Assembly (NCBI RefSeq): GCF_000196355.1
Contig: NC_007614.1
Location: 2,160,001 to 2,192,000 of the forward strand
Length of the DNA: 32,000 nt
Source: Nitrosospira multiformis ATCC 25196
GTDB lineage: Bacteria > Pseudomonadota > Gammaproteobacteria > Burkholderiales > Nitrosomonadaceae
Direction: 5' to 3'
The translations under genes were made by a program, and so were the position numbers. Position 1 is the stretch's first letter; every line of letters begins with the position of its first letter. Below are positions 6,491 through 22,172 of this stretch, piece by piece. The notes under the pieces were generated by a model. The model made no database searches and had not been told where the DNA came from. It worked only from the letters and a program-made list of their open reading frames with translations.

Positions 6491-6600
6491 TTCGCTTCTC
6501 CTTCATATTTATACTTATATCGAAAGGATAGCCGATGTGGAGGACTTGGCCCGGCAAATAAGGCGAGCCATGACTCCCATCCCGTCAGTCCATGACGCAC

Positions 6601-8083: not shown

Positions 8084-9205
8084 ATGAAAACGCTGGATTT
8101 TCGCCGGGCGGGTGCGCACATTGCCTTGGTCGTGCTGTTCGCTGTTTGTCCGGTTGCGTTTGCTGATGAAAACGATGAAGTTGCCAAACTCTACCAGCAG
8201 GGCAATCTGGACAAGGCACTGGAACAGGCAAATGCGTACCTCGCGCTCAAGCCAAAGGATCCGCAGATGCGGTTTCACAAGGGGTTGATACTGACCGAGC
8301 AGCAGAAAATCCCTGATGCGATCAAGGTCTTTTCTTCACTGTCGGAAGATTACCCCAACCTGCCCGAGCCGTATAATAACCTGGCGGTACTCTATGCCAG
8401 CCAGGGCCTGTATGAAAAGGCGAGGGGAGCGCTGGAGGCCGCTATACGCACTCACCCCAGCTACTCCATTGCGCATGAGAACCTGGGTGATATCTATGCA
8501 AAACTGGCCAGCGAGGCTTACGGCAAGGCCTTGCAACTGGACCAGGGCAACGCCGCGGCCCAGACCAAGCTTGCAATGATCAAGGATTTATTCATCGGCA
8601 AATCCGGCGCGATAAAAACTGCATCCGCTGCCACTGCGCCGGCACCGCCTGCTTCAGCCGCCCCCCGCTCCCCTGCGGCCACTACGCCATCTCCTCCCCG
8701 ATCCGCTGCTCCCGCAACCCCGCCTGCTTCCGTCCACCCCGCGCCCGGTAAAGCCCCGCAAAAATCAGCGGAAAAAAAAACTGAAAAGGCGGAAAAATCA
8801 GCACCGGGAAAGATAGCCGCGGTTGAAACACATTCACCAGAAAAGAAAACCGATGTTCCGGACGAATCCGACGAAATCATCAAAACTGTCAATGCGTGGG
8901 CCAGGGCATGGTCCGACAAGAACGTGACGGCATACTTCGCATTCTACGCGGCTGACTTTCAAACTCCTCGTGGCGTCAAGCGCACAACATGGGAAAAAAC
9001 GCGACGCGACCGCATCATCAAGCCAAAAGCCATCCAGGTGGAGATCACTCACCCCAAGGTAACTTTAATCAATCCAGCACGCGCGAGGGTAAGCTTCAGG
9101 CAACTCTATCACTCCGACGCATTCAAACACGATTCGTCCAAAACACTTGAGATGGTTAAAACGGACGGGAAGTGGCAGATCCGACAGGAGCGCTCCGCGA
9201 AATGA
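8084..9205 (+). CDS. TPR protein with Pro/Ala-rich linker and C-terminal Cds6/NTF2-like domain
   Basis: 373-aa ORF with a GGAGAAG RBS and signal peptide (ALVVLFAVCPVAFA/DE). It has N-terminal TPRs, a low-complexity APAPPASAAPRSP... linker, and a C-terminal domain (WARAWSDKNVTAYFAFYAADF...GKWQI) that recurs in the next gene. Confidence 0.8.
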   Translation: MKTLDFRRAGAHIALVVLFAVCPVAFADENDEVAKLYQQGNLDKALEQANAYLALKPKDPQMRFHKGLILTEQQKIPDAIKVFSSLSEDYPNLPEPYNNLAVLYASQGLYEKARGALEAAIRTHPSYSIAHENLGDIYAKLASEAYGKALQLDQGNAAAQTKLAMIKDLFIGKSGAIKTASAATAPAPPASAAPRSPAATTPSPPRSAAPATPPASVHPAPGKAPQKSAEKKTEKAEKSAPGKIAAVETHSPEKKTDVPDESDEIIKTVNAWARAWSDKNVTAYFAFYAADFQTPRGVKRTTWEKTRRDRIIKPKAIQVEITHPKVTLINPARARVSFRQLYHSDAFKHDSSKTLEMVKTDGKWQIRQERSAK

Positions 9206-10443
9206 ATGTGCAAACTCCATCTGCCGGATGCACACGGCGGCTGATAATCATGCTTGCCGGGATAACCGGGGCAGCGCTTTCGCTCTGGATTACCGCCGCG
9301 CTGGCCGAGGAAGCCTTGGCCCTATCCACTGCCTCCACGACCGGACCGGAATCGATACTCGTCAAGAGTCTCCAGGAGATCTCCGAGAGCCGCATGGATT
9401 CCGCATTGAACGGAATCGAGCAACTACTCAAGACTAATCCGAATTTCCGGCTTGCTCATCTGATCAAGGGTGACCTGCTGCTGGCCCGCGCCCGTCCCAT
9501 TCACACCATTGGCGAAACTGGGACGGCAATACAGCAGCCTATCGACGATTTACGCGAGGAGGCAAGAGCACGGCTTCAGCGCCACTTGGCACCGATACCG
9601 CTCGACATGACCCCCAAGTATCTGCTGCAAATGCCGCCTGAGCAGAAATACGCAATCATTGCCGACACAGGCAGATCGCGGTTATATCTCTATAAGAATG
9701 TCGATGGAAGCCCGCGTTATCTGGCGGACTATTACATCAGTACGGGCAAGAACGGTTCTCAAAAGCTGAAGGAGGGGGATAAAAAGACACCCATAGGCGT
9801 CTACTTCGTTACTGACAACCTGCCGCGTCAAAGGCTATCGGATTTTTATGGAGGCATGGCGTTCCCCATCAACTATCCCAACGAATGGGACAAAAGGCAC
9901 GGGCGCAGCGGTTATGGCATCTGGCTGCACGGCACCCCTCCGGATACTTACAGCCGCCCGCCCCGAGCGAGCGATGGCTGCGTAGTACTTGCAAATGACG
10001 ACCTGAATGCACTGGCCTCAACACTTCAGGTCGGCATTACATCCGTCATCATCAGCGATCAGATGGAATGGGTCAAACCCCACGATGCCGCCGCGCTGCG
10101 TAGAAAACTGGCCCAGCACCTGGAGAGATGGCGGCGAAGCTGGGAAAGCGGAAATATGGATGATTACGTCGCCATTTACGGAAACGATTTTTCCAGTGGG
10201 GAGCAGAAGCTGACGGAATGGATGCGAGACAAACAGCAGGCGGGTGGGGAAAAAAACCCGCACAAGGTCGGTATCAGCAATGTAGGCATTTTTCTTTATC
10301 CTGGAAGAGATGATCTCGCGGTAATCAACTTCGATGAAGAATATTCCAGCAATGATCTTTCCAATAAAATGAAAAAACGCCAGTACTGGATGAAGGAAGA
10401 TAAAAGCGGATCCTGGAAGATCATTTACGAAAGTGCGGCATAA
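9202..10443 (+). CDS. L,D-transpeptidase (YkuD domain) with C-terminal Cds6-like domain
   Basis: YkuD catalytic motif GIWLHGTPPDTYSRPPRASDGCVVLAN. ATG 9202 overlaps the upstream TGA (ATGA), and there is a signal-like N-terminus (RRLIIMLAGITGAALSLWITAALA/EE). The ORF track start at 9172 would overlap the upstream gene by 34 nt. Confidence 0.85.
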   Translation: MNVQTPSAGCTRRLIIMLAGITGAALSLWITAALAEEALALSTASTTGPESILVKSLQEISESRMDSALNGIEQLLKTNPNFRLAHLIKGDLLLARARPIHTIGETGTAIQQPIDDLREEARARLQRHLAPIPLDMTPKYLLQMPPEQKYAIIADTGRSRLYLYKNVDGSPRYLADYYISTGKNGSQKLKEGDKKTPIGVYFVTDNLPRQRLSDFYGGMAFPINYPNEWDKRHGRSGYGIWLHGTPPDTYSRPPRASDGCVVLANDDLNALASTLQVGITSVIISDQMEWVKPHDAAALRRKLAQHLERWRRSWESGNMDDYVAIYGNDFSSGEQKLTEWMRDKQQAGGEKNPHKVGISNVGIFLYPGRDDLAVINFDEEYSSNDLSNKMKKRQYWMKEDKSGSWKIIYESAA

Positions 10444-10571
10444 TCTGGAAATTATCGCTGCCTGTCCTTTCTTCACCCCATGCCGTTCCAGGATAGTCCG
10501 GGCAGGAACCGGCAGGTACAGGAACGGATAATTCTTCCACTCTTATCACTCTTATTATTACGGTCAAGCTA

Positions 10572-11195
10572 ATGCATATTTTCAAAGTTTTCTCAGTCCT
10601 TGCGCTCTCTTTCAGCTTCACCGCTCTTGCCGCGAATTCACCGACAAGCCATCCGCAAGTTGAAATAAAAACCAATCTCGGTAAAGTGGTACTGGAACTC
10701 TATCCCGACAAGGCGCCAAAAACCGTCGAAAATTTTTTGCACTATGTGAACGACGGGCACTACACCGGCACCATATTCCATCGTGTTATCCCGGGATTCA
10801 TGATCCAGGGTGGCGGATTCGACAAGACTTTCAAGCAGAAATCTACGAGACCACCTGTTGAGAACGAGGCCGGAAACGGCCTCAAGAATGAGATTGGAAC
10901 AGTTGCAATGGCGCGTACCACAGACCCTCACTCAGCCACCGCACAGTTTTTTATCAATGTGGCCAATAACACATTTCTCAATCAAACCTCGCCTACTCCG
11001 CGCGGTTATGGCTATACCGTATTCGGCAAGGTCATCGAGGGAATGGACGTGGTCAACAGGATCGCAGCTGTTCCCACCGGTTCCGGCGGACCATTCTCCA
11101 CCGATGTGCCGAAGGAAACCATAGTAATCGAGGAAATGAGACTTATTGCAAACCCGTCTCTCGCCTCTCCCACCCATCCACAAAACAGGGATTGA
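10572..11195 (+). CDS. ppiA: periplasmic peptidyl-prolyl cis-trans isomerase (cyclophilin type)
   Basis: Signal peptide ([16 protein letters not shown]) followed by a cyclophilin core ([41 protein letters not shown]). Confidence 0.9.
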
Positions 11196-11196
11196 T

Positions 11197-11691
11197 ATGA
11201 TCAGACTGCAAACGAACTACGGCGACATCATGCTCGAACTCGATCACGAAAAAGCACCGGTAACTGTCCAGAATTTTATAGACTATGTAAATAGCGGATA
11301 TTACGACAACACGATATTTCACCGCGTGATTGACGGATTCATGATTCAGGGAGGCGGTTTCGAACCGGGCATGATCCAGAAAAAAACCCGTGCCCCGATT
11401 GCAAATGAAGCAGGCAACGGTCTCAAGAACGATAAATATACCATCGCCATGGCGCGCACCTCTGATCCTCATTCAGCAACCGGTCAATTCTTTATCAATG
11501 TCAAGGATAACGATTTTCTGAATTACAAATCCCCCACAGCGCAAGGCTATGGCTACTGTGTGTTCGGCAAGGTGGTGGAAGGCATGGACGTAGTGGACAA
11601 GATCAAAAAGGTTAAAACGGGTACCCGCAGCGGCCATCAGGATGTACCTGTAGAAAATGCGATACTGGAAAAGGCAGAGGTAATTCAATAA
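11197..11691 (+). CDS. ppiB: cytoplasmic peptidyl-prolyl cis-trans isomerase (cyclophilin type)
   Basis: ATG 11197 lies 1 nt after the ppiA stop. The product begins [21 protein letters not shown] with no signal peptide and has a cyclophilin core ([34 protein letters not shown]). Confidence 0.9.
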
Positions 11692-11705
11692 CGTTTGTCA
11701 ACATC

Positions 11706-12386
11706 ATGAGCATGTCAGCACCTAAAGCTTTTTTCTCGCTTGGATTTGCGATCGCGCTGTGGCTGCCGGCCCCGGCTTTGCACGCTCTCCCTTTTGCAGA
11801 TACGGTAGTCAGCTTTACTCCCGGAGACAGTAGCTTCCCTGGCAGCATCTATGGGGTGGAGGATGATAGCGGTGGCATTTACACGGGCCTCTCGGGAGAA
11901 GGCGTTTTTGATGCCCGGGCGGTAACGGCCCTGGATGGAGCGGTGCTCGGACTGGGCGGCTCAGCCGGAACCCCCGGATCCATCACTCTGCACTTCAGCC
12001 GCGGTGAAGTAGTGGATGGGCCCGGCGCGGATCTGCGGTTGTACGACACGTTCAGCTTCCGGGACGGGTTCAACCTGGAAATAAGCGCGGATGGGACACA
12101 CTTCATGAACGCGTTTTTCTCCGCCGGGGATTTGTCGTATTTTGAATGTTCTCTTCAGCAACCTTGCACTGACGATGTAGACATTGCAGCCCTCCAGCTG
12201 GATGCGTTCAGCTACCTCCGGATCACTGCCGCGGGTAACATTGCTCAAGGCTTTCCAGAAGCCTATACACTGGATGCCGTGGAGGCGCTCCACTATCGTT
12301 CCAGCACGGTTCCCGAGCCCGGAACACTTGCATTGCTGGGGCTTGCTGCCGTCGGTCTGGCTTTTGCTCGCCGGCGTAAAGATTGA
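11706..12386 (+). CDS. PEP-CTERM sorting-domain protein
   Basis: N-terminal signal peptide and a C-terminal VPEPGTLALLGLAAVGLAFARRRKD, which is the canonical PEP motif plus TM helix plus basic cluster. Confidence 0.8.
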   Translation: MSMSAPKAFFSLGFAIALWLPAPALHALPFADTVVSFTPGDSSFPGSIYGVEDDSGGIYTGLSGEGVFDARAVTALDGAVLGLGGSAGTPGSITLHFSRGEVVDGPGADLRLYDTFSFRDGFNLEISADGTHFMNAFFSAGDLSYFECSLQQPCTDDVDIAALQLDAFSYLRITAAGNIAQGFPEAYTLDAVEALHYRSSTVPEPGTLALLGLAAVGLAFARRRKD

Positions 12387-12472
12387 ATTGCAGATCGAAT
12401 TGCGCTCGAACCCGCTCCGGGAACGACCACGGCTGATTGTCTTATCTTGCTTATCTTTTATCGGGAGAAATC

Positions 12473-13297
12473 ATGTTCACCCTGTCCACCTTCAGGCTCC
12501 TCATTGCGCTATCGATCAGTGCCTGGCTGGCAATGCTTTCCGGTTGCGCCACTACCACGGCAGGCGGTGCGGTCGGCGCAAACCGTTCCCAGCTTTTGCT
12601 CATATCCTCGGAACAGCTGGAGCAAACGGCGGCACAAGGCTATAGTCAGCTGAAAACGGAAGCGACCCAAAAAGGCGCCCTGAACACGAATGAAAAACTG
12701 CTGCAACGAGTGCGTGCTATCGCTCGCCGCATCGAGCCGCAAACGGGCATATTTCGAAAGGACGCTCCCGCGTGGAACTGGGAAGTCAATGTAATCGACA
12801 GCGATGAGCTTAATGCTTTTTGCATGCCTGGCGGAAAAATCATGTTTTATTCCGGGCTGATCAATCAGCTCAAATTGACAGATGAAGAAATCGCTGTGGT
12901 GATGGGGCATGAAATTGCCCACGCCCTGCGCGAGCACTCGCGCGAGCAGGTGTCGCAGGCTATTGCGGCGCAAACGGCACTGGGAGTGGGAACCGCAGTG
13001 TTCGGTCTCAGCCAGACTACCGCTCAGATCGCCGGCATCGGATATCAGGCGTTCATCGCCACCCACTTCAGTCGCACGGACGAAGCCGAAGCGGATCGCA
13101 TCGGGCTCGAATTGTCGGCTCGTGCTGGTTATAATCCCCGGGCCGGGGTCACACTGTGGCAAAAAATGATCAATGCCAATGCGGGAGGACAACTGCCCGA
13201 GTTTCTGAGCAGTCACCCTGCTGATTCCACCCGTGTGCAGCAGATCGAGTCGCTGCTGCCGGTCGTCATGCCACTTTATGAAGCAGCCCGCCGATGA
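12473..13297 (+). CDS. M48-family zinc metalloprotease lipoprotein (LoiP/YcaL-like)
   Basis: GGGAGA RBS before ATG 12473, a lipobox (AMLSGC), the HExxH motif HEIAHALREH, and a downstream EADRIGLELSARAGYNP block typical of M48. Confidence 0.85.
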   Translation: MFTLSTFRLLIALSISAWLAMLSGCATTTAGGAVGANRSQLLLISSEQLEQTAAQGYSQLKTEATQKGALNTNEKLLQRVRAIARRIEPQTGIFRKDAPAWNWEVNVIDSDELNAFCMPGGKIMFYSGLINQLKLTDEEIAVVMGHEIAHALREHSREQVSQAIAAQTALGVGTAVFGLSQTTAQIAGIGYQAFIATHFSRTDEAEADRIGLELSARAGYNPRAGVTLWQKMINANAGGQLPEFLSSHPADSTRVQQIESLLPVVMPLYEAARR

Positions 13298-13375
13298 CGC
13301 CCAAAGTCAGGTTAGCCCTCCTCGATATAAGCTGCTTGCGTCGATAAGCCAACAGCATCACTCGTGAAGCAAAAC

Positions 13376-13408
13376 AAAGCCGGGCTTCCTTCCTTTTGGC
13401 CCGGCTTT
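13376..13408 (-). terminator. rho-independent terminator between convergent M48 and S8 genes
   Basis: 10-bp stem AAAGCCGGGC/GCCCGGCTTT with a 13-nt loop. On the minus strand it is followed by GTTTTGCTT. Confidence 0.5.
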
Positions 13409-13440
13409 GCCAACCCGAAAAAACGACCTTCCACCTCCCG

Positions 13441-15201
13441 CTACTTGACTACCGTCACGCTGACGGATGAGGATGCGCTATTTCCCGCCGCATCCTTGGC
13501 GACTACCTGAACAGTATGTGCACCCGCGGCAACATTACGTATATTCCAGTTGTAACCCAGCGTACTTCCCTTTCCGGTAGCCTTGAGCACGCCGTCGATG
13601 TAGAGCGCATAGGTAATTCCGGAAGCGCCGCTATCATCGCTTGCATTTACGCTGATGGGCACGTTGCTTCCCGAAACATTGCCTGTGACCGGATTTACGA
13701 TCTTCACCTGTGGCGCGGTAGTATCCCTGGCCACCGTTGTCGTTCCGTTTGCCACATTCACCGAGACGGTGGTCGAAGCCTTGGAGTTGCCGGCCGCATC
13801 GAATGCATAAGCGGTCAGGTTCGCCATACCGTTGGCTACGCCTGCCGAATCCCAGGTGAAGGCGAACGGCGCCGTGGTGTCGACTGCGACTGTGGTATTG
13901 TTGACCCGCAACTCGACACGGGTCACGCCGACGTTATCGCTCGCAGCCACGTTTACGCCGACCAGACCTGTTACGCTTGATCCGCCAGCAGGGGAAGTGA
14001 TGGAAACCGCCGGGGCCTGCGTGTCTCCGGCGACCACTGCCGAGGCCGCCGCCTGCACCGCGCGTGCAGCATCAACCCGTCCATAGCCATAATAGGGATC
14101 GCGCCCCGCTGTGCCCAGATCCACGGCAGTTGAAAACAGCAGACTCTCGATCTGGGTATTGGATAATGTCGGCTTTGCCGCCATCATGAGCGCCACCACG
14201 CCGGCCGTTACCGGACTTGAGAATGATGTGCCGGAAGCCGCGCCATAGCCGCCCCCCATAGTCGTCGTCCAAATTCCGGCTCCAGGCGCGGCAAGGGAGA
14301 TGTAGTTTCCGTAGCTCGACCAACTGGCTCTGAAGTCGTTCGCATCTGTAGCGGCTACAGCTACCATCGATGTCGTTACTGCATAATTCTGGAGCACTCC
14401 CGTATTTCCGCCACTCACGATCACCAGGCCACCTTTATCCTTCATGTATTGCGCCGCGCTCCGGGTGCTCGCACTGTCGGTCAGTCCGAGGAAGCTGGCA
14501 TTGGCGACGCGAACGCCGCGGTCTGCCGCATAGATAAGCCCTTGGGAAATCGCACTCCAGGTGGCATATCCAGTACTCCCGCTCACGCGGACAGGCATTA
14601 TTTTAGCCAACGCCGCCACGCCGGCAACGCCTTGGGCATTGTTTGCCATGGCTGCCGCTGACCCTGCAACCTTGGTTCCATGCCCGTAAACATCCGACGT
14701 GTTGGAATTGTTTTCGTAGAAATTCCAGCCTGGAACAAGCTGGGGTGAGAGATCAGGGTGATTCGGGTCAACTCCTGAATCCAGGATGGCGATGGTCACG
14801 CCGCTGCCCAGGGAACTGTCCCAGGCGGACGGAGCGCCAATCTTGGGCAAATGCCAGGCGCTGCCATAGTAGGGATCGTTCGGTATGAGCGCGGGTTCGA
14901 CTTCCTGGTCGATCTCGGCAAACTTGAGCGCCGGATGATGCGCAAGCCTTGCCGCCACCGCCTTCTCAGAGGCATTACCCGGCAAGTCGACGATGTACAG
15001 ATCGCTCTGCCCGATCTTCCTGCCCTTGCCGCCATGTTCGCCCAGAACCTTGGCCAGTTCCTTTTCCGGCAAGCCGGCACGCGGCATGACCAGGATGCGA
15101 CCCTTCGCCCAGCCAAGCGGCTTGTTCATTCCAGGCCCCCTGCCCTCCGGAGGCTCTGCACTGGAAATGACCGGACCCAATCCCAGCAAAACTGCCAGTA
15201 T
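13441..15201. repeat. direct repeat copy A (S8 gene body), mosaic 70-99% identity to 17846-19612
   Basis: Hand alignment at offset 4405-4411 nt. Near-identity blocks lie at about 13570-14030 and 14790-15201. Homology ends abruptly at 15201, inside the signal-peptide h-region. Confidence 0.85.
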
Positions 15202-15321
15202 GCCGCTCCAAAGGGGATACCAAGGTTTGGAGATGTGCTGCGAGTTGCGAGTGCTTGATTGAATAATGCCTGAAGCGGGTTCTCTTGAGCCAGTTGCAGG
15301 CGCTTTATGATTGATATTCAC
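13441..15321 (-). CDS. secreted S8 subtilisin-family serine protease with I9-like propeptide and two C-terminal Ig-like (Big_7-type) domains, paralog 1
   Basis: Catalytic triad contexts AILDSGVD, HGTKVAG and GTSFSSPVTAG. Two DT(Q/T)AP...ASD..G... Ig-like repeats are present. Best start is GTG 15321, 7 nt after GAGGAGG. The ORF track start at 15411 has no RBS, and the GTG start gives a length (626 aa) essentially equal to paralog 2. Confidence 0.9.
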   Translation of the reverse strand: MNINHKAPATGSREPASGIIQSSTRNSQHISKPWYPLWSGILAVLLGLGPVISSAEPPEGRGPGMNKPLGWAKGRILVMPRAGLPEKELAKVLGEHGGKGRKIGQSDLYIVDLPGNASEKAVAARLAHHPALKFAEIDQEVEPALIPNDPYYGSAWHLPKIGAPSAWDSSLGSGVTIAILDSGVDPNHPDLSPQLVPGWNFYENNSNTSDVYGHGTKVAGSAAAMANNAQGVAGVAALAKIMPVRVSGSTGYATWSAISQGLIYAADRGVRVANASFLGLTDSASTRSAAQYMKDKGGLVIVSGGNTGVLQNYAVTTSMVAVAATDANDFRASWSSYGNYISLAAPGAGIWTTTMGGGYGAASGTSFSSPVTAGVVALMMAAKPTLSNTQIESLLFSTAVDLGTAGRDPYYGYGRVDAARAVQAAASAVVAGDTQAPAVSITSPAGGSSVTGLVGVNVAASDNVGVTRVELRVNNTTVAVDTTAPFAFTWDSAGVANGMANLTAYAFDAAGNSKASTTVSVNVANGTTTVARDTTAPQVKIVNPVTGNVSGSNVPISVNASDDSGASGITYALYIDGVLKATGKGSTLGYNWNIRNVAAGAHTVQVVAKDAAGNSASSSVSVTVVK

Positions 15322-15908
15322 GTAGTTCCTCCTCTTGGGGAGGCGGAACCGCCTAGATAGGCCGGGTGCCGAAAAACGTACTGAGCCGGAGCATCGAGAT
15401 CCACTCAACACGTTCTAATAGCTTCTCGTCATCCAAAGAATCGACAAGAAAGAAAATGGCATTATCTGGCAGTCCTGCCGTCCTGGGGCCTTGAGCCCGG
15501 TAGACCGATGACTTTGCGTCCCCCGCTTTCGCGAGATTTGCCTTTTACAGATTAAAAATTGCAGCGTTATCGTATCTGAACTCCCCAGGGGGTATGGGTG
15601 AAGCAACTGCACAAAAATCATTCTGTTCGTTGCTTTATTTAAAGGTGAAAAATGCTGCCGCTCCCGAACCCCGAGGAGATTTCGAAATTTGCAATTCTTG
15701 CAAACCAAACTTCCTGCCACTCCGGGTCAAACAGTACTCCTCCTGGTCGAAGAATTTTACATATCACTGCAGAATGGAAGAGCTCGAAGCAAACAAGGCT
15801 GATTTTATTGGAGTTTTAATTTAGGCACGAAAATTGCTAAAGAAGCTCCGATAGGCCGAAAACGAAGTTTCGAACCTATCCAACAAAAACTTATCAGGAG
15901 AACAAATA

Positions 15909-16580
15909 ATGAAGAGTCATTTGAAGGGAGCGTTTGCTGCACTGGGACTGCTGTCTGTGGCAGGAGGTGCCCAGGCAGCAATTTTCCAAATCGATTTCAC
16001 TACTGCCGGCGCGTTTTCCGGCACCGCGCCGTCCCAGCCAACAGATCCGAATGCAATTTTTGCGACAGCGACTTTCGACGATCACAACAGCTCCGGGTCG
16101 GTGACGCTGACAATGAATGTCTTTAATAATTTGTCCGCTGGCGCTTACGTCAATGACTGGTACTTCAACGTCGATTCGGCGCCATTGAGCGGTATCACCT
16201 TTGTGAGCGGAGTGGCCGCGCAGACCATCCAGAACGGAACAGATGCGTTCAAGGCCGATGGCACCGGCGGCAACTTTGATTTCGCATTTCATTTTCCCAC
16301 CCGCAATCCCGGAGAGTTGGGGCAAGGTCATACGTCCGTATATACCTTGACGGGAGGGGGCATTACTGCCGATTCTTTTAACGCGGTATCGGTATCCGCA
16401 CCGCCCAACGCGGGTAATGGCGGATATGTCAGCGCGCTCCACGTCCAGGGCTATGGCAACAGTGTCTGGATCGGCACTGACGGCGGGCCACCTTCCAATG
16501 AAATACCAGAACCGGCAACGCTTGCACTACTCGGGCTTGGCCTTTTGGGAATCGCGGCAACCAGGCGCCAGAAACGCTAG
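15909..16580 (+). CDS. PEP-CTERM sorting-domain protein
   Basis: AGGAGA RBS, signal peptide (LGLLSVAGGAQA/AI), and C-terminal IPEPATLALLGLGLLGIAATRRQKR. Confidence 0.85.
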   Translation: MKSHLKGAFAALGLLSVAGGAQAAIFQIDFTTAGAFSGTAPSQPTDPNAIFATATFDDHNSSGSVTLTMNVFNNLSAGAYVNDWYFNVDSAPLSGITFVSGVAAQTIQNGTDAFKADGTGGNFDFAFHFPTRNPGELGQGHTSVYTLTGGGITADSFNAVSVSAPPNAGNGGYVSALHVQGYGNSVWIGTDGGPPSNEIPEPATLALLGLGLLGIAATRRQKR

Positions 16581-16610
16581 AGCCTGCAAACAAGACAACT
16601 TGCATGATCA

Positions 16611-16636
16611 AAAACCCCGCTCTCGCGGGGTTTTTG
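16611..16636 (+). terminator. rho-independent terminator
   Basis: AAAACCCCGC-TCTC-GCGGGGTTTTT lies 30 nt after the stop at 16580. It is flanked by an A-tract and a T-tract, so it could act in both directions. Confidence 0.8.
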
Positions 16637-16951
16637 TTATCGATAATATTTACACCTCCTTGCCCGTCAAGCCACGGTAGTGCCCGTAGAGCGAAACCCC
16701 GAGGATAAATATTCCGGCGATGCTCTTCCCAATAATCGATATCAACTCCCTCATGCACCCAGGCCTCTCGCGCCCCAGCCTTCATTCATATCGAAAATAT
16801 TTTCATGCCATATATTATTCCTATTACTATCTCAGCAGCGTTTGATTTGACACATGCTCAAGCGGAACAGCTAGATGTAAAAAAAATCGACAGGGATGGG
16901 TGGTAATAACACCGAAATATCCCAGCTTCCGGTTCATCTCTGTCGTTACCC

Positions 16952-16980
16952 AAAAAAAAGCTCGCCGAAGCGAGCTTTTT
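16952..16980 (-). terminator. rho-independent terminator
   Basis: A8-GCTCGC-CGAA-GCGAGC-T5. On the minus strand the stem is followed by U8, about 20 nt after the stop at 17001. Confidence 0.8.
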
Positions 16981-17000
16981 AACTGGAATAGCGAATCTGT

Positions 17001-17672
17001 TTAAGCAAGCCTATTTCTCTGCCTGCGCGATACACCCCATCCCAGCAGCCCCAGCCCGAGAAGGGCAAGCGTCGTCGGCTCCGGAAGCTCTTGCGGCGGC
17101 GGACCTCCGAGTTCGGTAGGCCCCAGGCGAACTTGCTGTAAATCAGAAATCCCCGTCATTTGAACAGTACTGTCGATCGTTACTTTCACCATTACCTGGT
17201 TATCCAGGGAAAAACCGGTGAAAAAGTTCTGCCCGGAACCACTAAGTGGCTGATTCAAGAAGCTGAAGGTTGTGCCGAACTGATCCAACAGAAAGATGTT
17301 GGCAGAACCATCCGCGGCAGCATCAATATTGAACTGGACTTTCGAGAATCCAAGATTTGGATCGACCAAGCCGAAATCGATAAAGTTAAATGAACCATCA
17401 GCTGCTTCAATACGCGCCTGCCCTCCCGCCGGAGCAAAAATGTCTTCGTTACTTGTGAATCTGACAAGCTCACCGGTAGTCGGCGGATTGAGCTGTCCGA
17501 TAACTTCATGATCAAGAGTTGGATCAGGTTGATTAAAAAGTACATTATCCACATCTCCCGAGCCCCCTACCAGTCCTGGGCTTAACTGAAGAGTCGCGAA
17601 TGTATTTCCTGATAAAAGCACGCCGAGCAAAGCAACTCCGGCGCAGATCTTAAGTTTTCTCATGCCGTTCAT
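17001..17672 (-). CDS. PEP-CTERM sorting-domain protein
   Basis: GGGAGGGG RBS, signal peptide (VALLGVLLSGNTFA/TL), and C-terminal LPEPTTLALLGLGLLGWGVSRRQRNRLA. GC is visibly lower than in the neighbouring genes. Confidence 0.85.
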   Translation of the reverse strand: MNGMRKLKICAGVALLGVLLSGNTFATLQLSPGLVGGSGDVDNVLFNQPDPTLDHEVIGQLNPPTTGELVRFTSNEDIFAPAGGQARIEAADGSFNFIDFGLVDPNLGFSKVQFNIDAAADGSANIFLLDQFGTTFSFLNQPLSGSGQNFFTGFSLDNQVMVKVTIDSTVQMTGISDLQQVRLGPTELGGPPPQELPEPTTLALLGLGLLGWGVSRRQRNRLA

Positions 17673-17845
17673 GTTATGCCCCTCCCAAGTAAGAAGTTAT
17701 CTCCCTCGCTTGATCTGAAGCAAGTTGGATGCCAATGAGAAAGTCTATGAAAAACCTCGAGTTTCTTCCATCTTCCCGGAAGGGGTGTAAAAATTTACGA
17801 CATGTGAACGGGTAATAACATGCTCCTTGCTACTGCTTCTATCGG

Positions 17846-19612
17846 TTACTTGATCACTGTCACATTCACCGAAGCAGATGCTGTATTGCCCGCCGCATCT
17901 CTGGCGACCGTCCAGATAGTGTGTGCTCCCGCGCGCACATTGCTTGGGCGGGTATTCCAGCTATATCCTAACGTACTTCCTTTTCCGGTAGCCTTGAGCA
18001 CGCCGTCGATGTAGAGCGTACAGGTGATTCCGGAAGCGCCGCTATCATCGCTTGCATTCACGCTGATGGCCACATTGCTGCCCGAAACATTGCCTGTGAC
18101 CGGATTTACGATCTTCACCTGTGGCGCGGTAGTATCCCTGGCCACCGTTGTCGTTCCGTTTGCCACATTCACCGAGACGGTGGTCGAAGCCTTGGAGTTG
18201 CCGGCCGCATCGAATGCATAAGCGGTCAGGTTCGCCATACCGTTGGCTACGCCTGCCGAATCCCAGGTGAAGGCGAACGGCGCCGTGGTGTCGACTGCGA
18301 CTGTGGTATTGTTGACCCGCAACTCGACACGAGTCACGCCGACGTTATCGCTCGCAGCCACGTTTACGCCGACCAGGCCTGTTACGCTTGATCCGCCAGC
18401 AGGGGAAGTGATGGAAACCGCCGGAGCCTGCGTATCTGCTGTCAGCGTGGTGCCGGCGGCGGCCTGTACGGCACGCGCCGCATTCACTCGCCCATAGCCG
18501 TAGTAAGGATCGCGCCCTGGCGTTCCAAGATCCACCGCCGTGGAATACAGCAGACTCTCGATCTGGGTATTGGATAATGTCGGCTTTGCCGCCATCATGA
18601 GCGCCACCACCCCAGCCGTTACCGGGCTTGAGAACGACGTGCCGGAAACCGCGCCATAGCCGCCACCCTTGGTAGTGCTCCAGATTCCTGCACCGGGAGC
18701 CGCGAGAGCAATGTAATTACCATAACTAGACCAGCTCGTCCGTACGTCATTTCCGTCAGTGGCAGAGACAGGAATCATGCTGGTGGTTGCGGCATAATTT
18801 TGCTGTACGCCAGTGTTGCCCCCGCTGACAATGACAAGGCCGCCTTTGTTCTTCAGGTATTGCGCCGCACTGCGAGTACTCGCACTGTCGGTCAGTCCGA
18901 GAAAGCTGGCATTGGCGACGCGAACCCCGCGGTCTGCCGCATAGATAAGCCCTTGGGAAATCGCACTCCAGGTGGCATACCCATCAGAGCCACTTACCCG
19001 GATCGGCATGATCTTCGCCCGTGCCGCCACCGAGGCCACCCCCAGCGCGTTATTGCCTGCCGCTCCCGCCGCACCCGCAACCTTGGTGCCATGCCCGTAA
19101 ACATCCGATGTATTGGAATTGTTCTCGTAGAAATTCCAGCCTGGCACCAGTTCCGTAGCCAGATCAGGGTGAGTGCTATCGACTCCTGAATCCAGGATGG
19201 CGATGGTCACGCCGCTGCCCAGGGAACTGTCCCAGGCGGACGGAGCGCCAATCTTGGGCAAATGCCAGGCGCTGCCATAGTAGGGATCGTTCGGAATGAG
19301 CGCGGGTTCGACTTCCTGGTCGATCTCGGCAAACTTGAGCGCCGGATGATGCGCAAGCCTTGCCGCCACCGCCTTCTCGGAGGCATTACCCGGCAAGTCG
19401 ACGATATACAGATCGCTCTGCCCGATCTTCCTGCCCTTGCCGCCATGTTCGCCCAGAACCTTGGCCAGTTCCTTTTCCGGCAAGCCGGCACGCGGCATGA
19501 CCAGGATGCGACCCTTCGCCCAGCCAACCGGCTTGTTCATTCCAGGCCCCCTGCCCTCCGGAGGCTCTGCACTGGAAATGACCGGACCCAATCCCAGCAA
19601 AACTGCCAGTAT
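17846..19612. repeat. direct repeat copy B (S8 gene body)
   Basis: Counterpart of 13441-15201. Copy B carries 6 extra nt near its 3' end (protein NTRPSNVRAG versus NIRNVAAG in copy A). Confidence 0.85.
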
Positions 19613-19726
19613 CGCCCCTGCAAAACGGCAGCTGGATGAGGCAACCTTTGCGCGTATGTTTGATATGAACCTCTCGGCAAGCCGGGCCGCTACACCGGCC
19701 TGCTCTTCCCTCTTGTCGGCGTTCAT
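17846..19726 (-). CDS. secreted S8 subtilisin-family serine protease with I9-like propeptide and two C-terminal Ig-like domains, paralog 2
   Basis: 626 aa, with ATG 19726 preceded by GAAAGGAG. It has the same triad contexts and domain order as 13441-15321. There is no other in-frame ATG/GTG/TTG before the h-region. Confidence 0.9.
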   Translation of the reverse strand: MNADKREEQAGVAARLAERFISNIRAKVASSSCRFAGAILAVLLGLGPVISSAEPPEGRGPGMNKPVGWAKGRILVMPRAGLPEKELAKVLGEHGGKGRKIGQSDLYIVDLPGNASEKAVAARLAHHPALKFAEIDQEVEPALIPNDPYYGSAWHLPKIGAPSAWDSSLGSGVTIAILDSGVDSTHPDLATELVPGWNFYENNSNTSDVYGHGTKVAGAAGAAGNNALGVASVAARAKIMPIRVSGSDGYATWSAISQGLIYAADRGVRVANASFLGLTDSASTRSAAQYLKNKGGLVIVSGGNTGVQQNYAATTSMIPVSATDGNDVRTSWSSYGNYIALAAPGAGIWSTTKGGGYGAVSGTSFSSPVTAGVVALMMAAKPTLSNTQIESLLYSTAVDLGTPGRDPYYGYGRVNAARAVQAAAGTTLTADTQAPAVSITSPAGGSSVTGLVGVNVAASDNVGVTRVELRVNNTTVAVDTTAPFAFTWDSAGVANGMANLTAYAFDAAGNSKASTTVSVNVANGTTTVARDTTAPQVKIVNPVTGNVSGSNVAISVNASDDSGASGITCTLYIDGVLKATGKGSTLGYSWNTRPSNVRAGAHTIWTVARDAAGNTASASVNVTVIK

Positions 19727-20391
19727 GTTCGACTCCTTTCTAATTGTGAAAAATCAAGTTCCAAAAAAACAGCAATAAATCTGCCGGTCGTTACGTTCAT
19801 GACACGTCACTGCGCCTTTCCATAGAAATCTGGAAATAAGCAAGCCAATACTTATCCAATCCGGGGTTGCTGATTGAGATGCACCACTCTGGCCCGAAGC
19901 TGGAGTTCCGAGACTCCTGCCGGAATATCAATCGAGCTAGCGGCTCGCGCCGTAGCCTGCAATGGAATGGTCCAGGGAATTAGCTGAAGAAATTTTCTGT
20001 GACCTCATGGGCAAATCGAGCTGCCACAAAACAAACTGACAAACTGAATGGGTTCCTGCAGAACAGTGCTCTCTCAAATATTTCTTTTGTTGTTTCCAGT
20101 CCCTATCTTTTCCAATAAATGATCAGCTTGAGCCCGTTTGAAGCATTTTTTATGCCAGTCCTGCTTTTTTAGCTAAAACAGACACTTGAGGGGAAGCGGG
20201 TTCCCTTTGACCGTCGCCTTCCGGCGACGCAGAAATGAGCGGTAGAGGATAAATTCTTGAGAATAAGGGGATGTGAGTGTCGTTGAAGAACGACGAGACT
20301 ATGACGGATGAAGTCCGGGGGTAAGGAATATCTCTGGGGATAAGGATTATCTTCTGGCCTAACCGTACCGCTTATCCATTCACAGCTCGCC

Positions 20392-20420
20392 AAAAAACTC
20401 CATAACGGGTCCGGTCGTTA
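20392..20420 (-). terminator. weak candidate terminator after gspM
   Basis: On the minus strand: AUAACG-ACCGGACC-CGUUAU followed by GGAGUUUUUU. The stem is only 6 bp and AU-rich. Confidence 0.35.
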
Positions 20421-20427
20421 TCGGGCG

Positions 20428-20919
20428 CTACTCTGTAGTGGCACGGACGAATGTTCCCGTCACGGTCACTATTCCCGGTTCGGGCAAGGCTTCAATCCGG
20501 CCCTTTTCGAAACGCACGCGCTGTAACTGCATTGCTACAGTCCACTTCAGCCAGTCCGCGAAGGGCACAGCCTTAAACGTGACCTGGACCTGATCATCCC
20601 CCAGTGCATCAATGCCATTCAAAGCATGAGAAAGTCCGAGGATGTCTGCCTGGGTTTGCGCGAGCGCATGCAAATCGCCGGATAAGGGGGGCGGAGATGG
20701 AGTAACCTTTATACGCTCGTACTCGGCCGCCTGTTGCTCGAACTCTTCCGCCTGGACGCGCAGTTGCGGAAGGTTCGAGCGCAATCGGGTACGCGCCCTG
20801 TCCGCCGAGCTGACCAGCCCCAGATAAAGTCCCGCGCTCAAAATCATTCCCAATATTGTGATGACCCGCCGCTCCCGGGGAGAGCGTGATTCCCATGCTT
20901 TCCGCAGCTGTTTCCTCAC
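20428..20919 (-). CDS. gspM: type II secretion system protein M
   Basis: 163 aa. GTG 20919 overlaps the gspL stop (GTGA). A short cytoplasmic N-terminus is followed by one TM helix (VITILGMILSAGLYLGLV) and a periplasmic domain. Its position after gspL supports the call. Confidence 0.8.
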   Translation of the reverse strand: MRKQLRKAWESRSPRERRVITILGMILSAGLYLGLVSSADRARTRLRSNLPQLRVQAEEFEQQAAEYERIKVTPSPPPLSGDLHALAQTQADILGLSHALNGIDALGDDQVQVTFKAVPFADWLKWTVAMQLQRVRFEKGRIEALPEPGIVTVTGTFVRATTE

Positions 20920-22172
20920 GGAGTCGTCACCACGAGCACAACGATTCCGGCACCCCCGTCTGTCGGTGCCGGGTTGATATCGACACTCAGATCGTTTTCC
21001 CGCAACCGGGCGGCAATACGGTTCGCGAGTCCTTCCTCCGCGGCCAGCTCAAGCGCTATTCTCCCGCTATCATAGGAAATCGCATGCAGACTGCCAGAAG
21101 CCAGTTCGCTCAATGCCGGTCCCACTGTTTTGATCATGGGCAAGAAATCGGCCGTATCGGGAACGCCTGCCGCATGCCGCGCTTCGATGAGCTTTCGCCG
21201 CATCTGTAGCGCAGGGTCCACTACCGCGACCGCAGCCGGAAATAGGGCGCGAAACCGGGTTTCCATTTGCTGATGCAAGGCACGCTCTTCATTGGCAAGC
21301 AATGCCCAGTCAGCGGCAACGGCCAGGGAATGGAGCACCAACGCTGCCGCGCCGATCCAGACTGCCGGGCGCAGACGTGAAAGAAGTCCCCTGAAAGGAG
21401 GCCAGCGTCTGTGTTTCTGCAGCAAGCTGATACTGGATTGCTGAGCCCCGCGCCAATCCCAGGTCCCCGCAATGTATACAGGAATGCCGAGCACCCGTTG
21501 CCACGCTTCGATATCTGGCGCTGCCGCAGGATTCTTCATGATCTCACCGGCACTCTCCTCAAATGTCATTGCGCCTTCAGGCTCAATTGTATAGAGCGCG
21601 ATGGATGCCGGTCTCGCTCCATGCCTTTCCGCATCTTCGAGCATGAGATGCAATGACAACGGAGGAGACGCATCGCCTCCGCAATCTGTTGCTCCCCCTT
21701 CAAACTCGCCGGTGCGCACAAAACCTTCCCGGCCCTCCCAGGCGAAACTCCATTCTCCCGGCGTCCATGGCAATAACAGTGTTTCGCAGTAAATTTCATC
21801 CACTTGGATAGCAGCTGCCTGCAGCGCATCGAGACACTGCGTCAACCTTTTCTTATCCACTGCCGCGAGTATGTCCTCGCCTCCAGCGGAACCGATCCAG
21901 CTCACTTGATTAGCCTCAGGCTCACGCAGCATTTCTTCTTCGACCGCAAACGCCAGTACTGACCCAGGCTGCCGCCTCGCAGCGTCAGGTAAGCGAGCCC
22001 GTGTGAGCAAAACCTGGGCAGCTGGAATGATCAACTGGACAGAACTCGCGTTTTTCGGCAGATCAGCTATCTGCCCCTCCCCTGTCAAGGGCAATCCATC
22101 ATCGCCCGTCCATATCCACTGGCAACTCAATGATTCCTCCAGAAGAGGACACCGGATTCTTAGCAGGCTCAT
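20916..22172 (-). CDS. gspL: type II secretion system protein L
   Basis: 418 aa. ATG 22172 overlaps the gspK stop (ATGA). It has an actin-like cytoplasmic N-domain, a single TM helix (AVWIGAAALVLHSLAVAADWAL) and a periplasmic C-domain. The call also rests on operon position. Confidence 0.85.
   Translation of the reverse strand: MSLLRIRCPLLEESLSCQWIWTGDDGLPLTGEGQIADLPKNASSVQLIIPAAQVLLTRARLPDAARRQPGSVLAFAVEEEMLREPEANQVSWIGSAGGEDILAAVDKKRLTQCLDALQAAAIQVDEIYCETLLLPWTPGEWSFAWEGREGFVRTGEFEGGATDCGGDASPPLSLHLMLEDAERHGARPASIALYTIEPEGAMTFEESAGEIMKNPAAAPDIEAWQRVLGIPVYIAGTWDWRGAQQSSISLLQKHRRWPPFRGLLSRLRPAVWIGAAALVLHSLAVAADWALLANEERALHQQMETRFRALFPAAVAVVDPALQMRRKLIEARHAAGVPDTADFLPMIKTVGPALSELASGSLHAISYDSGRIALELAAEEGLANRIAARLRENDLSVDINPAPTDGGAGIVVLVVTTP

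Follow-up and report, generated by a model that had tools for sequence, protein, structure and literature searches.

Two thermitase-like subtilase genes in the window, the whole 32,000-nucleotide stretch of Nitrosospira multiformis ATCC 25196 DNA analysed here, are very probably old positional paralogs in a conserved module, and their coding regions are held in concert by repeated gene conversion. Comparison with related genomes, as far as sequence can tell, shows recurrent intragenomic conversion of an old duplicate, with recent duplication and artefact set aside. The pair is a clean case of concerted evolution, not a fundamentally new one.

The gene pair and its mosaic identity

Both genes are large minus-strand open reading frames. 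S8-A (13441..15321) encodes a 626-aa thermitase-like subtilase whose order of parts is N-terminal extension, signal h-region, propeptide, Peptidase_S8 domain and two Big_7 domains, and S8-B (17846..19726), with gspM upstream, encodes a 626-aa paralog of the same architecture. S8-A matches PF00082 at 1e-46 and PF17957 at 2e-28. Thermitase (1thm) matches S8-A residues 146-423 at 2e-57; in the alignment its D181/H214/S366 triad and N305 have counterparts in thermitase and BPN', and the triad motifs are the same in S8-B. S8-B starts with an ATG served by an AAGGAG Shine-Dalgarno sequence. The start of S8-A was corrected from the ORF-maximal position 15411 to a GTG at 15321, since this codon is preceded, at a distance of 6 nt, by a GAGGAGG Shine-Dalgarno sequence and the resulting VNINHKAP N-terminus is that of the annotated orthologues.

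The genes are collinear direct repeats offset by 4411 nt, with no inverted repeat between them. Homology, aligned with MAFFT, extends from A 15201/B 19612 as far as the two stop codons (13441 and 17846), and identity beyond the block is at the random level on both flanks, confirming the sharp end inside the signal-peptide h-region described in a sequence-only reading of this DNA. The single 6-nt indel, also seen in that reading, lies at A 13542, past which the offset is 4405 because of it. Overall, 237 differences in 1781 columns give 86.7% identity. These differences are far from uniform, as the same reading had proposed: four tracts of 98-99.4% identity (dS 0-0.13) are interspersed with tracts about 70% identical, in which synonymous substitution has reached saturation (pS 0.69-0.82). 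Substitution rates computed segment by segment bear out the mosaic. Third codon positions diverge by 2-6% in the former and 50-64% in the latter. The longest identical run is 251 nt, whereas permuting the positions of the differences 10,000 times gave no run above 95. Restricted to third codon positions, the longest run is 83, and the null reaches 41 at most. Near-identical tracts make up over half of the gene length.

From the 5' end, conversion tract C1 (A 14771-15201/B 19182-19612; 4/431 differences, dS 0.038) spans the signal h-region and propeptide and reaches into the catalytic domain as far as the catalytic Asp. It is followed by diverged tract D1 (A 14569-14770/B 18980-19181; 72% identical, pS 0.69, dN/dS 0.08), which holds the catalytic His together with the helix and strand after it. 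Conversion island C2 (A 14468-14568/B 18879-18979; 2/101 differences) precedes D2 (A 14201-14467/B 18612-18878; 72% identical, pS 0.82 and thus saturated, dN 0.096), the tract of the oxyanion Asn, the S1 region and the catalytic Ser (S366). Island C3 (A 14136-14200/B 18547-18611; 1/65 differences) is followed by D3 (A 14014-14135/B 18425-18546; 70% identical), where the catalytic domain ends and a linker follows, and conversion tract C4 (A 13670-14013/B 18081-18424; 2/344 differences) covers the first Big_7 domain and a linker. The 3' region (13441..13669), with the second Big_7 domain, consists of M (90% identical) and D4 (A 13441-13542; 66% identical, with the indel). All of these tracts lie on the minus strand. 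Counts previously made by hand, two substitutions between 13670-13990 and 18081-18401 and about four between 14790-15201 and 19201-19612, were reproduced, and the short identical islands reported in the catalytic region correspond to C2 and C3.

Flanks, spacer and a c-di-GMP-I riboswitch

With S8-A starting at 15321, the spacer between the two genes (15322-17845) is about 2.5 kb; the earlier figure was 2.6 kb. The two PEP-CTERM genes previously recognised in it both match PF07589. PEP2 (15909..16580, plus strand, opposite to the S8 genes; 223 aa, 8e-08) has an orthologue in L082 only, and PEP1 (17001..17672, minus strand; 223 aa, 7e-07) has orthologues in L002 and L081. Upstream of S8-B lie gspM and gspL (20428..22172, minus strand; PF04612 at 3e-41, TIGR01709 at 4e-54), the end of a type II secretion operon, whose synteny is also seen in other assemblies.

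The 5' leader of S8-A contains a c-di-GMP-I (GEMM-I) riboswitch aptamer (15465..15552, minus strand), 144 nt upstream of the start codon. The match to Rfam RF01051 covers the full-length model and reaches 69.7 bits, where the gathering score is 35, with an E-value of 7e-12; the sequence-only reading had missed this element. Between the aptamer and the gene, a putative expression platform (15322..15464, minus strand) runs from a GGCGGUUCCGCC hairpin through CCUCCCC to the GAGGAGG Shine-Dalgarno sequence (15334-15328). None of these elements varies across 8 genomes, NpAV among them, and the platform, with a fold z-score of -2.6, presumably provides the switching mechanism of the leader. In 14 other loci the riboswitch is likewise conserved before the A-position copy, and in the loci compared it was never found upstream of the B-position copy; in every two-copy genome, four Nitrosomonas loci included, it precedes the downstream copy only. 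The 700-nt non-coding leader from gspM to S8-B (19727..20427, minus strand) yielded no riboswitch in an Rfam scan at the E-value threshold. This leader is conserved in the N. multiformis clade without codon periodicity, and in other strains its ORF is interrupted.

The leaders are continued by unrelated N-terminal extensions. That of S8-A (15202..15321, minus strand; 40 codons) is 41-48% identical to that of S8-B (19613-19726), which equals the random level, while orthologous extensions are 81-85% identical. At the other end, the 3' region is paralog-specific in all genomes (B clade bootstrap 100). Judging by the genomes aligned, two parts differ between the copies without exception, namely the 5' control region, N-terminal extension included, and the 3' end, a pattern that the earlier reading had missed.

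The module of S8 gene, PEP-CTERM gene(s), riboswitch and S8 gene is conserved in Nitrosospira and Nitrosomonas, with PEP-CTERM genes in all of its spacers. NpAV has synteny in common with the window strain at 70-76% identity, which places the duplication before the NpAV split. This conserved architecture argues for a single ancient duplication. The family-wide pattern might also have arisen by independent duplications in each lineage, for in the catalytic-domain trees the copies of each genome pair as sisters at bootstrap 100, the C-terminal tree leaves the types unseparated, and no tree of any segment distinguishes A-type from B-type across genera. Each such duplication, however, would have had to recreate the same order (riboswitch-less copy, PEP-CTERM gene(s), riboswitch, second copy) along with unrelated 5' ends and diverged 3' ends, and the positional orthology of NpAV within Nitrosospira is backed by flanking synteny. 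Repeated independent origins are therefore improbable.

Concerted evolution across genomes

The two-copy locus with matching flanks is also present in five other N. multiformis-group assemblies. Within the six genomes, the C1 tracts of the two copies are 0.958-0.998 identical, versus about 0.93 between orthologues. A neighbour-joining tree of C1 clusters the copies by genome (bootstrap 100 for the window strain, 98 for m83, 88 for Nl7 and 100 for m82), and 42 of 85 variable sites split by genome and none by paralog. Trees of D1-D3 and the 3' end, in contrast, cluster the copies by paralog, with B clades at 99 and 100. Substitutions private to the window strain and present in both copies number 10 in C1 and 12 in C4, and none were found in D1-D3. 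Comparison with orthologues thus sorts C tracts by genome and D tracts by paralog, upholding the proposal of the sequence-only reading that conversion homogenises the propeptide tract and the first Big_7 domain.

For the latter domain the proposal holds in the window strain and, separately, in L082, but not in general. The two copies of C4 are 0.994 identical in the window strain versus 0.84-0.89 in the four other genomes with differing copies. The copies of L082 are identical across C4, a 100% identity that comes from a metagenome scaffold and may be partly artefact. In the window strain, C4 of S8-A is 0.88-0.90 identical to most B orthologues versus 0.80-0.85 to most A orthologues, with L081 as the exception (about 0.89 to both its A and B orthologues). 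In the C4 tree the two window-strain copies are sisters at bootstrap 100, placed within the B copies. By these identities and this topology, the C4 conversion is specific to the window strain and directed from B to A. Since flanking genes are only 94-97% identical to those of the nearest strains, the conversions are younger than the divergence of these strains.

The import of diverged alleles from other strains into one copy by horizontal transfer could also produce a mosaic. A third D2 type, neither A-like nor B-like, occurs in L082 and L084, metagenome homologues carry several further A/B patch combinations, and A-type D1 is derived relative to outgroups. Import leaves unexplained, however, both the lineage-private substitutions common to the two copies with the by-genome split of C1 sites and the recurrence of the pattern in every genome examined. 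As the main cause it is unlikely; some of the variation in the D tracts may come from it, but the identical tracts do not.

Copy sequences were taken from assemblies, and near-identical repeats of 340-430 nt are of the kind mishandled by short-read assemblers and polishers, which might merge the reads of two diverged copies, or of one copy, and so create spurious identity or a spurious duplication. Nl18 has a redundant contig of 1032 nt at the S8 gene. Yet six independent assemblies, isolate and metagenome, have two copies with the same flanks and tract structure. The near-identical tracts alternate with 70%-identity segments, which cannot collapse, and each still holds 1-4 differences between the copies, which means that assembly kept the two apart. 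An artefact is very unlikely.

The sequence-only reading had offered gene conversion or a very recent duplication, and only the former stands. A very recent tandem duplication in which a few segments then diverged fast, for instance under positive selection on substrate-binding regions, would fit the near-identical tracts that make up over half of the gene and the A/B differences at the equivalents of subtilisin subsite residues D99, G160 and Y217. It is contradicted by saturated synonymous sites and dN/dS below 0.1 in the diverged catalytic tracts, by their clustering by paralog across strains 3-13% diverged, and by the two-copy, riboswitch-asymmetric architecture of NpAV and Nitrosomonas, and has scarcely any standing left. 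The related suggestion that diverged segments are maintained for two specificities is weak, because of the same low dN/dS and because some lineages have a fully homogenised catalytic domain (identical throughout between the copies of N. aestuarii, L014 and L082). Of about 35 differences in the catalytic domain, only about 4 lie at the equivalents of known subtilisin subsite residues, and metagenome homologues combine the A/B patches in other ways. Finally, extreme purifying selection on nucleotides, as by an embedded RNA or regulatory element, might be read from the fair conservation of C1-C3 between strains (0.88-0.94), but it can be dismissed, as orthologues differ there at 6-12% of sites and within-genome paralogs at 0-4%, variable sites split by genome, and C4 is homogenised in the window strain and L082 only (84-89% in the other four two-copy genomes).

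Proposed conversion cycle and spacer deletion

Repeated gene conversion of an old pair would proceed by intrachromosomal, non-reciprocal homologous recombination between the direct repeats, presumably of a RecA type. Conversion would initiate and resolve within stretches that are still nearly identical, which would keep them identical, and new mutations there would be copied to both genes. Stretches diverged by about 30% and the ends of the homology block (the 5' leader and N-terminal extension, and the last Ig domain) would be poor substrates and stay paralog-specific, creating the mosaic. Tract boundaries may thus be limited by divergence, or they could be set by selection instead, and the data are compatible with either. 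Conversion is general in the family, but lineages differ in its extent: the longest identical run between copies is as short as 11 nt in Nsp14 and as long as 1174 nt in N. aestuarii, and the ends of the block are diverged in every pair compared. In the window strain C1, C2 and C3 are homogenised, and C4, the first Ig domain, is the latest conversion.

The outcome would be nearly the same secreted thermitase-like protease expressed under two promoters and leaders that differ in their wiring. S8-A would be gated by c-di-GMP through its riboswitch, and S8-B would be expressed behind the type II secretion operon from its own leader. This arrangement suggests regulatory subfunctionalisation of the pair, and secretion may run through the type II system.

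A reciprocal crossover between the same tracts would lose the spacer and leave one B/A hybrid gene. Single hybrids of this kind, with the spacer deleted, are found in Nl18 and L084 (an SCN 54-20-type contig), so the spacer deletion by repeat recombination anticipated in the sequence-only reading does occur; the inversion it also raised is impossible, because the copies are direct repeats. Both hybrids could in principle be assembly mis-joins. A search of the Nl18 assembly for a second copy or an alternative tract found neither, and its extra contig of about 1 kb is identical to the hybrid gene. The crossovers fall inside the near-identical tracts, in C2 in Nl18 and in C1 in L084.

Two subtilase genes with a mosaic identity

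The neighbouring genes S8-A and S8-B each encode a Peptidase_S8 domain followed by two Big_7 Ig-like domains. S8-B occupies 17846-19726 on the reverse strand, and S8-A, on the same strand, has a maximal reading frame of 13441-15411. The S8-A start is a GTG at 15321, preceded at a distance of 6 nt by a GAGGAGG Shine-Dalgarno sequence; the N-terminus that this start gives, VNINHKAP, agrees with annotated S8-A orthologues, so that S8-A (13441-15321) and S8-B are both 626 amino acids long. The proteins match PF00082 at 1e-46 and 2.5e-43 (Pfam), and the catalytic domain is thermitase-like, with a 1thm match over residues 146-423 (E 2e-57). D181, H214, N305 and S366 of S8-A align as the Asp-His-Ser triad and the oxyanion Asn, and S8-B has identical motifs; the family match, the ordered triad and the oxyanion Asn assign both proteins to Peptidase S8, thermitase-like S8A. 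A putative propeptide, residues ~92-145, aligns with the propeptide of pro-subtilisin E (3whi), from which proteolytic activity and propeptide-assisted maturation are predicted. The top database matches are Nitrosospira multiformis proteins, the nearest to S8-B being 92% identical.

Both paralogs resemble thermitase and subtilisin (MEROPS S8A) and StmPr1 of Stenotrophomonas, a subtilase secreted by the type II system (PMC6789491), in their thermitase-like domain, intact triad and N-terminal propeptide, and a gsp operon adjoins the S8 genes. Unlike these enzymes, they bear two C-terminal Big_7 domains and an unusually long extension of ~36-40 amino acids ahead of the signal h-region, and their secretion route is a predicted one. 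Immediately before the h-region, the B orthologues of GCA_900116835 and Nl18 carry a Tat-motif-like SSRRRF; at the same site (window 19627-19639) S8-B has SSSCRF and Nl7 has SSRCRF.

Upstream of S8-B lie gspL and gspM, the end of the gspG-M operon (20428-22172, reverse strand). Downstream of S8-A, all on the forward strand, are genes for an M48 peptidase (12437-13297), a third PEP-CTERM protein (11706-12386) and PPIases (10572-11691). The spacer, 15322-17845, holds two unrelated genes, at 15909-16580 (forward) and 17001-17672 (reverse), whose products match PF07589 at 32.6 and 29.5 bits (cutoff 20.7) and TIGR02595 at 25.8 and 25.5 (cutoff 16). By the Pfam/TIGRFAM cutoffs for a C-terminal PEP motif followed by a transmembrane helix and a basic tail, they are PEP-CTERM (exosortase-sorted) proteins. 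A larger segmental duplication, considered from the paralogy of the three PEP-CTERM genes, was rejected because they are 22-28% identical outside the sorting signal. The gspG-M operon adjoins the S8 pair in Nitrosospira and has no such adjacency in Nitrosomonas; its position in Nitrosospira makes S8-A and S8-B candidate type II secretion substrates. The adjacent PPIase genes are of the cyclophilin type (10572-11195 and 11146-11691), the second being a TTG-start reading frame that shares 50 nt with the first; its real start is probably further downstream, as orthologous loci annotate 164 amino acids.

The S8 copies are direct repeats at an offset of 4411 nt, and a search for inverted repeats between them found none. 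Their computed alignment begins within the signal h-region, at A 15201 / B 19612, and continues to the stop codons; it holds a single 6-nt indel, at A 13542, and identity in the flanks is random. Identity is 86.7% overall and bimodal along the gene. In A coordinates, on the reverse strand, the near-identical tracts C1 (14771-15201), C2 (14468-14568), C3 (14136-14200) and C4 (13670-14013) differ at 4 of 431, 2 of 101, 1 of 65 and 2 of 344 positions. The diverged tracts D1 (14569-14770), D2 (14201-14467), D3 (14014-14135) and D4 (13441-13542) are 72%, 72%, 70% and 66% identical. The alignment and the per-tract counts bear out every figure that the sequence-only reading had offered for the copies. 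Nei-Gojobori counts put dS between A and B at 0.03-0.13 within C tracts, while D tracts show saturation at synonymous sites (pS 0.69-0.82) alongside dN of 0.10-0.16 and dN/dS <0.1. A permutation test on the longest identical run, a GENECONV-type criterion that detects identical fragments beyond expectation from overall divergence, gives 251 nt, where 10,000 permutations reach at most 95, and for third codon positions alone 83, where the null maximum is 41.

Highly probable gene conversion and the differences that persist

Five further two-copy loci were compared, from N. multiformis GCA_900116835 (L001), Nl7 (L002) and the metagenome contigs L081, L082 and L083, and all have the gene order gspM, S8-B, PEP-CTERM gene(s), S8-A and M48. 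In C1, A and B are 0.958-0.998 identical within each of six genomes, whereas A-A, B-B and cross-genome A-B comparisons each give ~0.93. In D1-D3 and D4, orthologues are on average 0.84-0.92 identical and paralogs 0.64-0.78, with L082 as the exception; between the window strain and its nearest strains, orthologue identity of D tracts reaches 0.95. Bootstrapped neighbour-joining trees of C1 group the copies by genome (window strain 100, m83 98, Nl7 88, m82 100, m82 and m83 being tree labels), while the grouping in those of D1-D3 and the 3' end follows the paralog (B-clade bootstrap 99 and 100). Among 85 variable C1 sites, 42 split by genome and none by paralog, and substitutions private to the window strain occur in both of its copies at 10 sites in C1, 12 in C4 and none in D1-D3. 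The flanking genes are 94-97% identical to those of the nearest strains, so C1 and C4, at 99.1-99.4%, were homogenised after the strains diverged. The gene conversion proposed from the window alone is thus upheld by within-genome C1 identity, by-genome trees and shared private substitutions, and its recurrent action between S8-A and S8-B within genomes is highly probable.

Three other explanations of the near-identity fare poorly. Purifying selection at the nucleotide level is contradicted by C1 identity that is higher within genomes than between orthologues and by the partition of sites by genome. A recent duplication of the pair, the other origin that had been considered for the mosaic, is contradicted by the grouping of C tracts by genome and D tracts by paralog, by the shared private substitutions and by tracts younger than the strains. 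Positional orthology places the duplication before the compared lineages, as the flanks and the riboswitch asymmetry are common to N. multiformis strains and the more distant Nitrosospira relative NpAV; the module kept in Nitrosomonas and saturated D-tract dS further support an old duplication. An assembly artefact is contradicted, and a false duplication ruled out, by the same two-copy order in five other assemblies.

C4 is near-identical in the window strain only, besides the separately homogenised L082 scaffold. The C4 of its A copy is 0.88-0.90 identical to most B orthologues and 0.80-0.85 to most A orthologues (L081, at ~0.89 to both copies, is the exception), and the C4 tree places the window pair among B copies, indicating that this conversion ran from B to A. 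Among 60 database homologues there was no external donor for the A-type D1 tract, and outgroups are slightly more B-like. In L082 and in L084, a contig of the SCN 54-20 type, D2 is neither A-type nor B-type, and 33 private sites are common to both L082 copies; this D2 makes up a third allele class.

The extent of conversion varies widely among relatives. The pair of Nitrosospira sp. Nsp14 is unconverted (62% identity overall, longest identical run 11 nt) and that of N. nitrosa is 78% identical overall; longest identical runs reach 173 nt in L016, 782 nt in L014 and 1174 nt in N. aestuarii Nm36, and the L082 copies are 100% identical from C1 through C4. Catalytic-domain trees pair each genome's two copies at bootstrap 100, and metagenome homologues such as P0008 and P0011 have other combinations of A and B patches. 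Because other pairs are homogenised or differently patched, maintenance of the diverged catalytic patches seen in the N. multiformis clade is not universal. In every pair compared, divergence persists at the 5' end and over the final 250-300 nt, so that the universally maintained difference is the regulatory/N-terminal end together with the distal Ig domain. A tree of the unconverted C-terminal 76 residues gave no separation of A-type from B-type across genera. At the Nsp14 locus (L010, 3633-5482), the B-position copy matches as adjacent segments 3633-5018 and 5021-5482; this upstream copy may be frameshifted or decaying, in a lineage without conversion.

These patterns bear on the earlier suggestion that the diverged segments keep two substrate specificities on a shared scaffold. 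The A/B differences at subtilisin subsite positions are few: T250D (D99), L310Q (G160), M355K (P210) and A362V (Y217). They were mapped by sequence alignment to thermitase, taken from the 1thm match, and to BPN'. With so few subsite differences, and with catalytic patches that are not kept across lineages, two specificities are possible but unsupported. A simpler reading would be that divergence and edge effects limit conversion, under which regulatory divergence would be the durable difference between the copies.

A riboswitch ahead of one copy

The upstream regions of the two genes are indeed unrelated, as the sequence-only reading held, but it overlooked a riboswitch that precedes S8-A only. 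A c-di-GMP-I riboswitch (RF01051) lies at 15465-15552 on the reverse strand, in the 5' leader of S8-A and 144 nt upstream of its start at 15321; in Rfam it scores 69.7 bits (gathering score 35) and spans the whole model, positions 1-87 of 87. The element is assigned as a c-di-GMP-I aptamer, with c-di-GMP binding and a change in expression predicted. An Rfam scan of 10400-20500 at an E-value threshold gave no credible match ahead of S8-B to a riboswitch or any other known RNA. From aptamer to start codon, the A leader is nearly invariant in eight genomes and contains a GGCGGUUCCGCC hairpin, then CCUCCCC, then the Shine-Dalgarno sequence, a candidate anti-SD/SD arrangement that suggests translational control. 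The leader matches the full-length model at twice the gathering score and, like other members of RF01051, the element lies in a 5' UTR; what sets it apart is the association alone, in which one of two converting paralogs is predicted to be controlled.

This asymmetry is conserved. Every genome with an A-position copy (L001, L002, L005, L081, L082, L083, NpAV, Nsp14 and MGR421) has the aptamer ahead of that copy, and in four Nitrosomonas loci (L013, L014, L016 and L018) it always stands before the downstream copy and never before the upstream one. These orthologous aptamers score 57-80 bits, and each spacer holds one PEP-CTERM gene or two. The flanks of NpAV are those of Nitrosospira, at 70-76% identity; those of Nitrosomonas include neither T2SS genes nor M48. 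The conserved unit is thus S8 / PEP-CTERM / riboswitch / S8. The pairing of riboswitch and S8 gene recurs widely in Betaproteobacteria: a c-di-GMP-I or c-di-GMP-I-GGC aptamer accompanies the single-copy homologues of Azohydromonas, Propionivibrio, Thauera and Nitrotoga, as well as two of four S8 copies in Massilia. With aptamers at single-copy homologues, the riboswitch-linked copy looks like the ancestral state and S8-B like a riboswitch-less derivative.

S8-B has a leader of its own, the 700 nt between gspM and S8-B (19727-20427, reverse strand), which N. multiformis-group genomes conserve at 75-95% and which lacks codon periodicity and any Rfam match; it was not detectable beyond the N. multiformis clade. 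A weak terminator-like hairpin with a T-run lies at 19786-19770, ~30 nt before the S8-B Shine-Dalgarno sequence, and the region may be an unrecognised regulatory leader. A 74-amino-acid reading frame within it (20169-20393) was rejected as coding because codon periodicity is absent and other strains have the frame interrupted. The PEP-CTERM content of the spacer also varies by strain (window 15322-17845 compared with L001, L002, L081, L082 and L083): the opposite-strand gene 15909-16580 has an orthologue in L082 only, other genomes have a same-strand gene of ~270 amino acids, and the L082 spacer holds a single gene. The spacer behaves as a slot for variable cargo.

Crossover products and known systems

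Recombination between the repeats had been predicted to delete or invert the spacer. Deletion is borne out by hybrid single genes in two relatives. In Nl18 (L004), gspM and M48 flank one gene, of B type up to and including D1 and of A type from D2 on, which places the crossover in the 101-nt C2 island; L084, sister to L082, whose copies are identical over 1.5 kb, has a different hybrid with its crossover in C1. The two look like independent deletions, and in each the PEP-CTERM spacer and the riboswitch are gone. Inversion is ruled out, since the copies are direct repeats without an inverted repeat and cannot invert the spacer between them. The only other Nl18 match is one redundant 1032-nt contig (L024), 100% identical to part of the hybrid gene and read from that identity as assembly redundancy at exactly this repeat-prone locus. 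Nl12 (L005, 6327-6621), compared with its closest relative (L001, 9277-13264), is without S8-B, its leader and the first PEP-CTERM gene and retains the riboswitch-linked copy only, through a deletion that the S8 repeats did not mediate.

The pair also permits a regulatory reading. An ancient duplicate of a secreted protease controlled by a c-di-GMP riboswitch would have lost the riboswitch, and since the split of Nitrosospira and Nitrosomonas, conversion tolerated by selection would have kept the two enzymes nearly the same and their control regions distinct. Conversion would then be a maintenance mechanism for regulatory subfunctionalisation, and the intervening PEP-CTERM genes would be variable cargo, lost at each crossover of the repeats. 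We regard this subfunctionalisation as about evenly poised between true and false, and its family-wide, long-lived form, "one enzyme, two switches", with enzymes kept alike by conversion under distinct control, as a more tentative proposal. If true, a regulation-asymmetric case that does not concern dosage would join the few known examples of long-lasting concerted evolution in prokaryotes.

Interlocus conversion and concerted evolution in bacteria are already known, as are the component families (S8A subtilase, GEMM-I riboswitch, PEP-CTERM). In enterobacteria, tufA and tufB are dispersed paralogs, far apart and in inverse orientation, that RecA-dependent ectopic conversion homogenises over the whole coding sequence. 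As in tufA/tufB, non-reciprocal exchange within one chromosome keeps two S8 coding sequences near-identical while their flanks differ, and a RecA-type homologous recombination is proposed. The S8 pair, unlike tufA/tufB, is arranged as direct repeats at a distance of 4.4 kb, retains stable diverged blocks and frequently yields deletion products. Closer in taxonomy are amoCAB, haoAB and cycAB of the Nitrosomonadales, whose long-lasting concerted evolution, like that of other prokaryotic cases, is attributed to recurrent gene conversion (PMC6053082). They share with the S8 pair the bacterial order and syntenic positional paralogs that are closer within a genome than to orthologues; the text of that paper, its 26-gene list aside, makes no mention of peptidase or subtilisin genes. 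Against these cases, S8 homogenisation is partial, patchy and lineage-variable, S8 copy number is not fixed, and the copies differ in cis-regulation, with the riboswitch on one, rather than being dosage copies of an identical operon.

Non-allelic homologous recombination with hybrid genes is described for a tandem PE_PGRS pair in tubercle bacilli (PMC1762029) and for the human ATAD3 tandem paralogs (PMC8844715), where, as here, conversion tracts accompany crossover/deletion products and the hybrid junction falls inside an identical tract. Apart from gene family and organism, the S8 case differs in that deletion also takes the riboswitch and PEP-CTERM cargo, so that the regulation of the surviving gene is altered. 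We found no literature description of the S8 locus or of any Nitrosospira c-di-GMP riboswitch. Particular to the locus are a mosaic that is sharp and stable between strains, an asymmetry in regulation between the converting copies, a module kept across two genera and the presence of the main recombination outcomes among close relatives. As a natural example it is compact: sequenced relatives show patchy conversion, near-complete homogenisation and hybrid crossover with spacer loss side by side. It is also a warning that whole-gene identity misleads in dating such paralogs and that short-read assemblies are not to be trusted here.

In ammonia oxidisers, and in Betaproteobacteria beyond them, a secreted subtilase and PEP-CTERM proteins are here brought together with a c-di-GMP-I riboswitch. 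This offers a way to test whether c-di-GMP controls the remodelling of matrix or flocs in nitrifying biofilms, and the hybrid-gene strains, without the riboswitch and both spacer genes, are natural mutants for such a test. At related loci, the c-di-GMP-I-GGC variant (RF03167) stands in place of the canonical class ahead of single-copy S8 genes in Thauera (L051, 7710-7796) and Nitrotoga (L076, 7864-7939). In Roseateles oligotrophus (L031, 7430-7491) the S8 homologue has a Betaproteobacteria toxic small RNA match (52.5 bits) immediately upstream, and locus L033 has a second, borderline c-di-GMP-I match (36.8 bits) downstream of its S8 gene on the opposite strand (10611-10694, reverse). In Massilia sp. 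SR12 (L058, 4708-12650), which has four tandem S8 homologues, aptamers of equal score at 6593-6679 and 8772-8858 precede two of them, suggesting that the riboswitch was duplicated along with the gene.
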